Sequence record: OR845352.1
Length of the DNA: 3,161 nucleotides
From: Escherichia phage ECO95 1-6-1
Direction: 5' to 3' (one strand)
This document shows positions 164 to 523 of the stretch, one piece after another; position 1 is the first letter of the stretch; each line of letters starts with the position of its first letter. The notes under the pieces are model-generated. The model saw only the letters and a list, made by a program, of their open reading frames with translations, searched no databases and was not told where the DNA came from. The translations under genes and the position numbers were made by a program.

Positions 164-363
164 CACACACTATCAAAACCATTCCAGACATGCTCATAGA
201 GACATATGGAAACCAGACAGAAGTAGCACGGCGCTTATCGTGCCACCGCAATACAGTCAGGCGTTATCTGTACGACAAAGAAGCCAGGCATCACGCCATC
301 GTTAACGGCGTTTTAATGATTCATCAGGGCGGGAGAGGTATCTATGACCGTAACCAGCATTAA
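160..363 (+). CDS. ninH: NinH-like small DNA-binding protein (67 aa)
   Basis: The translation (MTHTIKTIPDMLIETYGNQTEVARRLSCHRNTVRRYLYDKEARHHAIVNGVLMIHQ...) closely resembles lambda NinH as I recall it, including a helix-turn-helix-like segment (QTEVARRLSCHRNTVRRYL). GGAGG at 151-155 lies 4 nt upstream of the ATG. It sits in the expected place just upstream of Q. Confidence 0.85.
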   Translation: MTHTIKTIPDMLIETYGNQTEVARRLSCHRNTVRRYLYDKEARHHAIVNGVLMIHQGGRGIYDRNQH

Positions 364-523
364 CCAGGCGAAACAGCAGCGTGAACGTGACGAAGCTGAA
401 TTGCGCAGCGTCAGAGAGATGACGGAGCAACACCAGAAGGCGATGGATTATCTGCATGAGCGAGAGCGTGAACTGGTGAACCGGCTTGGATTGAACAAGC
501 CGTCGGGAGGCAATGCTGCATGA
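344..523 (+). CDS. Hypothetical small protein (59 aa), charged and predicted helical; absent from the ORF track because it is under 60 aa
   Basis: ATG at 344 is preceded by GGGAGAGG (about 7 nt spacing). It reads MTVTSINQAKQQRERDEAELRSVREMTEQHQKAMDYLHERERELVNRLGLNKPSGGNAA. Its start overlaps the ninH 3' end by 20 nt in another frame, and its TGA (521-523) overlaps the Q ATG (520-522) as ATGA. It exactly fills the ninH-Q gap, which argues it is a real gene. Confidence 0.5.
   Translation: MTVTSINQAKQQRERDEAELRSVREMTEQHQKAMDYLHERERELVNRLGLNKPSGGNAA

Follow-up and report, generated by a model that had tools for sequence, protein, structure and literature searches.

The nearest described system to the locus studied here is the end of the nin region of phage P22. 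The phage L genome paper (PMC8022706) counts ninZ among the ten nin genes of P22 and credits their naming to the two P22 genome papers that appeared in 2000 and 2003. In P22-like and lambdoid Salmonella prophages ninZ closes the nin region within the early right operon. Its product appears as a 59 amino acid protein of 'Unknown' function in a table of the UAB_Phi20 paper (PMC4837284), and the gene was spared by a published P22 nin deletion in which ninB to ninH were removed (PMC11016777). A literature search for ninZ returned genome-annotation tables only, and no functional study of NinZ was found. In the P22 record (BK000583), ninH (36826-37029) is followed by ninZ (37010-37189, YP_063729) and then by gene 23, which begins at 37186 and encodes a 207 amino acid antiterminator of the lambda Q type (PF03589).

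In lambda-type prophages the slot between ninH and the late antiterminator gene Q is taken instead by ninI (orf221), which encodes a Ser/Thr phosphatase of about 220 amino acids and is also packed against Q by an ATGA overlap; NinI occupies the same slot before Q in some E. coli prophages. The product of the gene on the other side of this slot, NinH, has been described in lambda as a Fis-like homodimer which has no counterpart of the N-terminal section of Fis, binds and bends DNA unaided and is toxic when overexpressed (PMC7166090).

Identity of the ORF between ninH and Q

The window, by which we mean the whole stretch of 3161 bp that was analysed, covers the genes for late control and lysis of a Salmonella prophage of the P22-like or lambdoid kind. 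It includes the 3' end of ninY (to 163), followed on the plus strand by ninH (160-363; 67 amino acids, Pfam Phage_NinH, E=1.6e-42), the ORF that is the subject of this study (344-523) and a late-gene antiterminator gene Q of the PF06530 type (520-1038; 172 amino acids, Pfam Phage_antitermQ, E=5.5e-26, and PHROG 943, E=4e-91). Two tRNA genes, for tRNA-Asn (GTT; 1101-1175) and tRNA-Thr (TGT; 1182-1257), lie between Q and the gene for a class II holin (1503-1706), and these are followed by a lysozyme gene (1678-2181) and by Rz with Rz1 embedded in it (2178-2645). Over positions 100-1100 the window matches Salmonella phage S.Kent 1-2-1, the record of which is unannotated, with 100% identity, and phages S107, S135 and S137 with 99.7%; the 100%-identical phage record OR850876 is without any annotation, and in S107 the ORF at 344-523 is annotated as orf76, 'Nin protein'.

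The ORF fills the gap between ninH and Q with 59 codons, from an ATG at 344 to a TGA at 521-523, and encodes the protein MTVTSINQAKQQRERDEAELRSVREMTEQHQKAMDYLHERERELVNRLGLNKPSGGNAA. A Shine-Dalgarno sequence, GGGAGAGG (331-338, plus strand), was read from the sequence inside the 3' end of ninH, 5 nt before the ATG. The overlap with ninH is 20 nt long (344-363, with the ninH stop codon TAA at 361-363) and the two genes are read in different frames, and at the other end the TGA of the ORF is joined to the start codon of Q (ATG, 520-522) in an ATGA at 520-523 on the plus strand. The initial annotation had proposed an ORF of this length with a good Shine-Dalgarno sequence and with both of these overlaps, and all of this was confirmed from the sequence.

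Comparison with phage genomes shows, with high confidence, that the ORF is the ortholog of P22 ninZ, and thus an already known gene. A tblastn search matched it to P22 NinZ with 91.5% amino acid identity over 59/59 residues (E=2e-29; BK000583 37010-37186), the P22 and window proteins differing at five residues (Q11H, L48I, S54A, G56D and N57D). The two loci share the gene order, the length of 59 amino acids, the 20-nt overlap with ninH and the 4-nt overlap with the following gene, but differ in what that gene is, since gene 23 of P22 encodes the PF03589-type antiterminator and the window carries the 172 amino acid Q of the PF06530 type. ORFs annotated as NinZ, 'Nin protein' or gp72 with 93-100% identity were found in ST160, ST104, SE1, ES18, epsilon34, L, Oslo, Emek, S107 and others, and the annotated NinZ orthologs of ST64T, ST104, ST160, ES18, epsilon34, L, BTP1 and S107 are all 59 amino acids long, with identities of 91.5-100%. 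Dozens of phage records carry a NinZ or 'Nin protein' annotation for this gene, and at least 1000 public contigs (Salmonella) encode exactly this 59 amino acid protein, which is named 'NinZ' in UniRef and 'hypothetical protein' at NCBI. Similarity to P22 and to the family profile, the length of 59 amino acids together with an RRELxNRxxLNK motif, and the position at the end of the nin region all agree with this assignment, and we refer to the ORF as ninZ from here on.

The product had earlier been considered unassignable to any family, which does not stand, as it corresponds to P22 NinZ (91.5% identity), carries that name in UniRef and matches PHROG 1402 (annotated 'unknown function', E=2.2e-20). 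The sensitive protein searches that the initial annotation had proposed for the 59 amino acid sequence thus succeeded in part: the PHROG match was obtained, while a Pfam scan gave no family at the curated cut-off (best E=0.014) and an NCBIfam scan gave no match above threshold. The statement that the protein differs from lambda NinI was borne out, as NinZ is 59 amino acids long, has no metallophosphatase domain and has neither sequence nor structural relation to the enzyme of about 220 amino acids which holds the same slot. A reading of NinZ as a relative of NinI was accordingly dropped, a metallophosphatase domain of that size having no place in a protein of 59 amino acids.

Several other features of the window were observed. 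A near-consensus promoter (TTGACA, 18 nt, CATAAT; 11/12 matches) at 1016-1045 overlaps the 3' end of Q and probably represents P_R', the late promoter. A run of eight T (934-941) is also present further inside Q, in its 3' part; one viral contig (L013) has seven T at this site, giving a frameshifted Q of 175 amino acids with a different C-terminus, which could be a sequencing error or slippage, and related Q alleles end at 161, 162 or 168 amino acids. The annotations of S107, BTP1 and E. coli prophages include the same tRNA-Asn/tRNA-Thr pair. An Rz1-type lipoprotein ORF of 61 amino acids (2398-2583), with a signal and a lipobox (...LVVSAC), lies in the +1 frame of Rz, an embedded arrangement as in P22 and lambda. 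The DNA after Rz (2640-3161) had no megablast match in a collection of 50,697 phage records, and is 99% identical to DNA present in 1-5 copies in 673/5426 complete E. coli genomes (O103:H2, for example), where the counterpart is annotated as 'PerC family transcriptional regulator' beside 'lysis protein'. A PerC-like ORF begins at 3109 (MLHDHLAECLEKKGLYR...) and runs off the end of the window, and the GC content is 27.5% at 2901-3100, upstream of it. To judge from these matches, an extra (non-core) gene of the EHEC-type Pch/PerC kind lies directly behind a Salmonella-type nin/Q module.

Purifying selection on ninZ and constraints at its two ends

As the window contains 39 ORFs of at least 30 amino acids, the length of 59 codons is in itself not beyond chance, and conservation was tested. 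The ORF was intact, at 59-60 amino acids, in 89/89 related loci bearing ninZ, which were drawn from phage records, 80 IMG/VR contigs and 5 genomes of other genera (these from a collection holding one genome per species) and which had been chosen by protein similarity, a choice biased toward intact copies. Frameshifts or stops in orthologous loci, which the initial annotation had named as the finding that would speak against the gene, were absent from these 89 protein-selected loci, but a few frameshifted or internally deleted variants do occur in the protein database. Orthologs from Phytobacter, Rouxiella and Candidatus Erwinia dacicola, with identities of 41-72%, keep both the length of 59-60 amino acids and the C-terminal motif described below.

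Among 82 gap-free copies there were 45 distinct nucleotide alleles, and in codons 8-53, which lie outside both overlaps, the variable sites were distributed 9/3/20 over codon positions 1, 2 and 3, so that 20 of the 32 fell at third positions. The pN/pS ratio, a pooled pairwise estimate which ignores the tree relating the sequences, was 0.16 in the frame of ninZ compared to 1.55 and 7.41 in the other two frames. Conservation and codon-level selection, the checks that had been suggested earlier, thus both uphold the view of a genuine gene translationally packed between ninH and Q, and the comparison of alleles shows ninZ to be protein-coding and under purifying selection. The ORF is short, as a chance ORF or a stretch of non-coding spacer would be in a window with so many ORFs of that order, but the conservation, the pattern of codon positions and the size of the family rule this reading out for practical purposes.

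The two ends of the gene carry constraints of another kind. The first seven codons, which fall in the ninH overlap, have one variable site in 21 nt. The last six (codons 54-59, 503-520, plus strand) read SGGNAA in the window and PAGGDAA, TSGGDAA or DGPEAA elsewhere, and the variable sites in nt 160-180 of the gene are distributed 4/2/1 by codon position, with no third-position pattern; these tail variants partly track the type of the gene downstream. The Shine-Dalgarno sequence of Q (GGAGG, 506-510, plus strand) lies here, within codons 55-56. Both ends of ninZ are therefore shaped by its neighbours and the middle of the gene alone reports on NinZ.

The -4 overlap (ATGA) of ninZ with the next gene was found in 88/90 loci, whatever that gene was, and genes all along the nin regions of lambdoid phages are as a rule packed in this way (PMC8022706). 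The packing is generic to the nin region, and in genomes without ninZ the coupling of Q to ninH or ninI is of the same kind; the overlap is therefore not a device specific to ninZ. It was also observed that products of the nin region end in (E/D/N)-A-A or E-V-A before the stop codon (NinY ...REAA, NinZ ...GNAA, NinG ...MEAA, RusA ...LEAA), and that the corresponding gene ends in DNA, at 152-163 and 512-523 of the window and in three other loci (L007, L010 and L011), have the form GAGGCxGCATGA, a Shine-Dalgarno sequence plus an ATGA restart for the following gene. The apparent C-terminal 'conservation' of small nin proteins is thus at least partly at the level of nucleotides.

It might be supposed from this that ninZ is purely a cis device, an ORF whose translation delivers ribosomes to the start of Q and whose peptide has no function. 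The ATGA overlap and the Q Shine-Dalgarno sequence inside the ORF would suit such a device, as would a modest predicted hairpin in which nt 551-557 pair with nt 513-519, immediately ahead of the Q ATG (z=-1.97). This hairpin is only marginally above shuffled sequences, 7/200 of which fold as well, and a leader of which translation alone mattered would show no constraint on its amino acids, whereas those of NinZ are under purifying selection (pN/pS 0.16) and its C-terminal motif is invariant or nearly so across members of 30-50% identity, including phages in which the next gene is not Q. Together with the equally good coupling of Q to ninH or ninI in the absence of ninZ, this makes a functionless peptide very improbable. 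A model in which the ribosome-binding site at the Q start is sequestered was set aside on account of the marginal fold. Around the ninZ start, the predicted RNA fold was not more stable than those of shuffled sequences (z=+0.82), and an Rfam scan of the window returned the two tRNAs alone and nothing in or near ninZ.

The NinZ family and its predicted helix

Profile searching and an exhaustive HMM search show that NinZ belongs to a widespread family of phage proteins of roughly 60 amino acids, PHROG 1402. The profile search collected 509 NinZ-family clusters at 90% identity, none with a Pfam domain, from Salmonella, Enterobacter, Citrobacter, Klebsiella aerogenes, Phytobacter, Rouxiella and Erwinia, and rarely from E. 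coli. The HMM search, carried out over 1.84 billion representatives, gave 152 at E<=0.001 (at the 50% identity level), nearly all of which are 40-120 amino acids long. The members share the core L-x-E-x-R-R-E-[LI]-[VI]-N-[RQ]-[LY]-x-L-N-K, and its counterpart in the window, RELVNRLGLNKP (codons 42-53, 467-502, plus strand), is by alignment and per-column conservation the most conserved part of the family and is kept in distant members, some of which have Cys-rich C-terminal extensions. In an alignment of 35 diverse sequences, residues E43, N46, R47 and N51 are invariant.

AlphaFold2, run with this alignment of 35 sequences, predicted one uninterrupted alpha-helix over residues 3-48 (350-487, plus strand) with a mean pLDDT of 85.6, reaching 91-97 over residues 11-50 and falling in the tail to an average of 56 for residues 51-59 and below 50 for residues 56-59, suggesting that the tail is disordered. 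The helix has a heptad pattern: taking I6 as position a, the hydrophobic fraction at the a and d positions is 0.72 across the alignment compared to 0.24 elsewhere, and the six other registers gave fractions of 0.21-0.51. A continuous helix with this periodicity is what is expected of a coiled coil, and in this model NinZ is probably one, pairing with itself or with a partner. Several of the a and d positions are polar (R13, D16, T27, H30 and E41), and a stable homodimer of NinZ is for that reason not assured. The earlier description of the product as highly charged and probably helical fits both this prediction and the composition of the protein, which has 10 basic and 10 acidic residues; with the charges so balanced, NinZ is no obvious DNA binder.

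The matches of a profile search against PDB sequences were all coiled coils and all below significance, crescentin being the best (E=0.2), and a Foldseek search of BFVD with the single-helix model gave no matches. Small helical or coiled-coil phage regulators of the lambda CIII kind belong to the same size class of 50-60 amino acids, are non-essential and are encoded in the early operon. Their likeness to NinZ, in size and in having a predicted amphipathic helix, is an analogy of kind only; no sequence similarity to NinZ was detected.

Relations of NinZ to Q and to NinH

In lambdoid prophages ninZ is nearly always the last gene before the late activator, whatever gene lies upstream. That upstream gene is ninH in 78/84 scorable loci, with the same 20-nt overlap in 78/84, and is otherwise the gene for NinG, NinY or RusA. 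Downstream of ninZ there is a PF06530-type Q in 34 loci, a PF03589-type Q of 207, 254 or 257 amino acids in 46 and a small non-Q ORF of 49-80 amino acids in 10, and in relatives from other genera an ORF of 52-63 amino acids stands between NinZ and Q, one such Q being of the phrog_753 type. Residues 1-52 of NinZ, identical to those of the window, precede four forms of Q (PF06530, and PF03589 of 207, 254 and 257 amino acids) and also an 80 amino acid non-Q ORF, from which it follows that NinZ does not co-vary with Q.

These data bear on the suggestion, made in the initial annotation from the position of the ORF directly upstream of Q, that it may modulate late-gene timing. That NinZ tunes the timing of the late genes by acting in trans, whether on Q itself or on RNA polymerase modified by Q, is in our view improbable. 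Its almost constant place as the last gene before the late activator, behind ninH, ninG, rusA or ninY alike, is what such a function would lead one to expect, and could reflect a general link to late-gene control which goes beyond gene order. Lambdoid gene order is conserved in any case, which makes adjacency weak evidence, and adjacency was the sole support for the suggestion. The 52-residue core is found unchanged before unrelated Q families and before a non-Q ORF, and is parted from Q by another ORF in some relatives. Hundreds of complete E. coli genomes also carry the Q allele of the window, with about 92% nucleotide identity; in these the homology to the window begins exactly at the Q start codon and ninH or ninI directly abuts Q. 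Furthermore, Jerseyvirus genomes have NinZ-like genes in early-gene clusters, and in the 4.1-kb stretch examined around one of them a Q-like gene was not found. There is, then, neither co-occurrence nor co-variation of NinZ with one Q family, and a role specific to a Q type is unlikely on these comparisons, while NinZ could still have a generic effect on late timing that extends beyond one Q type.

NinZ-like and NinH-like genes also lie close together in Jerseyvirus. SETP3 has a NinZ-like gene (gp59, 'putative NinZ-like protein') and a NinH-like gene (gp61) with a 49 amino acid ORF between them (2944-3493 of locus L005). Its gp59 matches PHROG 1402 (E=9.5e-26), is about 45% identical to NinZ of the window over residues 19-56, has the same length and carries the motif as RRELINRYxLNK, but Jerseyvirus members are siphophages, the N-terminal third of the protein differs and the order is reversed, the NinZ-like gene standing before the NinH-like one. 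In about 30% of the sampled Jerseyvirus genomes the two are fused in one ORF of 118 amino acids (P0155; LPSE1 gp20; 801-1157 of locus L100), residues 19-48 of which align to NinZ and residues 45-94 to NinH of the window, and the PHROG 268 profile contains both NinZ-like and NinH-like parts. The invariant NRxxLNK motif is lost in the fusion ORF. An AlphaFold2 model of P0155 made from the single sequence had a pLDDT of 64, with the NinH part below 50.

NinZ might be a functional partner of the Fis-like NinH, supplying a dimerising or regulatory helix to a pair which acts on DNA. The 20-nt overlap conserved in most scorable loci, the occurrence of both genes one ORF apart in unrelated phages and the recurrent fusion all point this way. 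The partnership is nonetheless an unlikely one, for each protein is found without the other: NinZ has no NinH nearby in Klebsiella aerogenes, in other prophages and in epsilon34, which has ninZ and a lambda-type Q without ninH (PMC2629481), and NinH is commonly present without NinZ, as in lambda and in E. coli prophages. Lambda NinH, moreover, homodimerises and binds DNA alone (PMC7166090), and the fusion, since it deletes the invariant motif, may represent a deletion that the phages tolerate and no meaningful joining of two functions. The model of the fusion was too poor to interpret. The narrower proposal of a two-part module of NinZ and NinH, in which the NinZ helix pairs with or regulates the NinH dimer, would be a little more doubtful still.

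The reading that we favour combines an action of NinZ in trans with a use of its terminal codons in cis, and it is offered tentatively, with confidence somewhat short of even. NinZ would be a delayed-early product, translated from the antiterminated transcript of P_R by way of its own Shine-Dalgarno sequence inside ninH. Its amphipathic helix of 46 residues would enter into coiled-coil pairing with itself or a partner and present the invariant C-terminal motif for protein-protein contact, and NinZ would act as a small, non-essential accessory protein, either an adaptor or an inhibitor, with a target that is not specific to a Q type. In cis, the last six codons of ninZ and its stop codon would form the ribosome-binding site and restart point of the following gene, which in the window is Q. 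The literature that could be searched contained no experiment on NinZ, and we therefore infer its oligomeric state, its partner and its phenotype alike.

Named in P22 for years and annotated in many phage and Salmonella records, ninZ carries little weight as a discovery. What is useful in the present analysis is in part negative and in part descriptive, in that ninZ is a real gene, its product belongs to a widespread family of small, probable coiled-coil proteins that has no Pfam entry, and the comparisons speak against a part in late-gene timing that is tied to one type of Q. The repeated association of NinZ with NinH, including the fusion in Jerseyvirus, is the one lead that merits a small experiment. 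If the two did work together, the NinZ helix would stand in for the N-terminal helices which NinH lacks in comparison with Fis, and a NinZ-NinH module would account for the gene overlap in P22-like phages, for the proximity of the two genes in Jerseyvirus and for the recurrence of the fusion ORFs.
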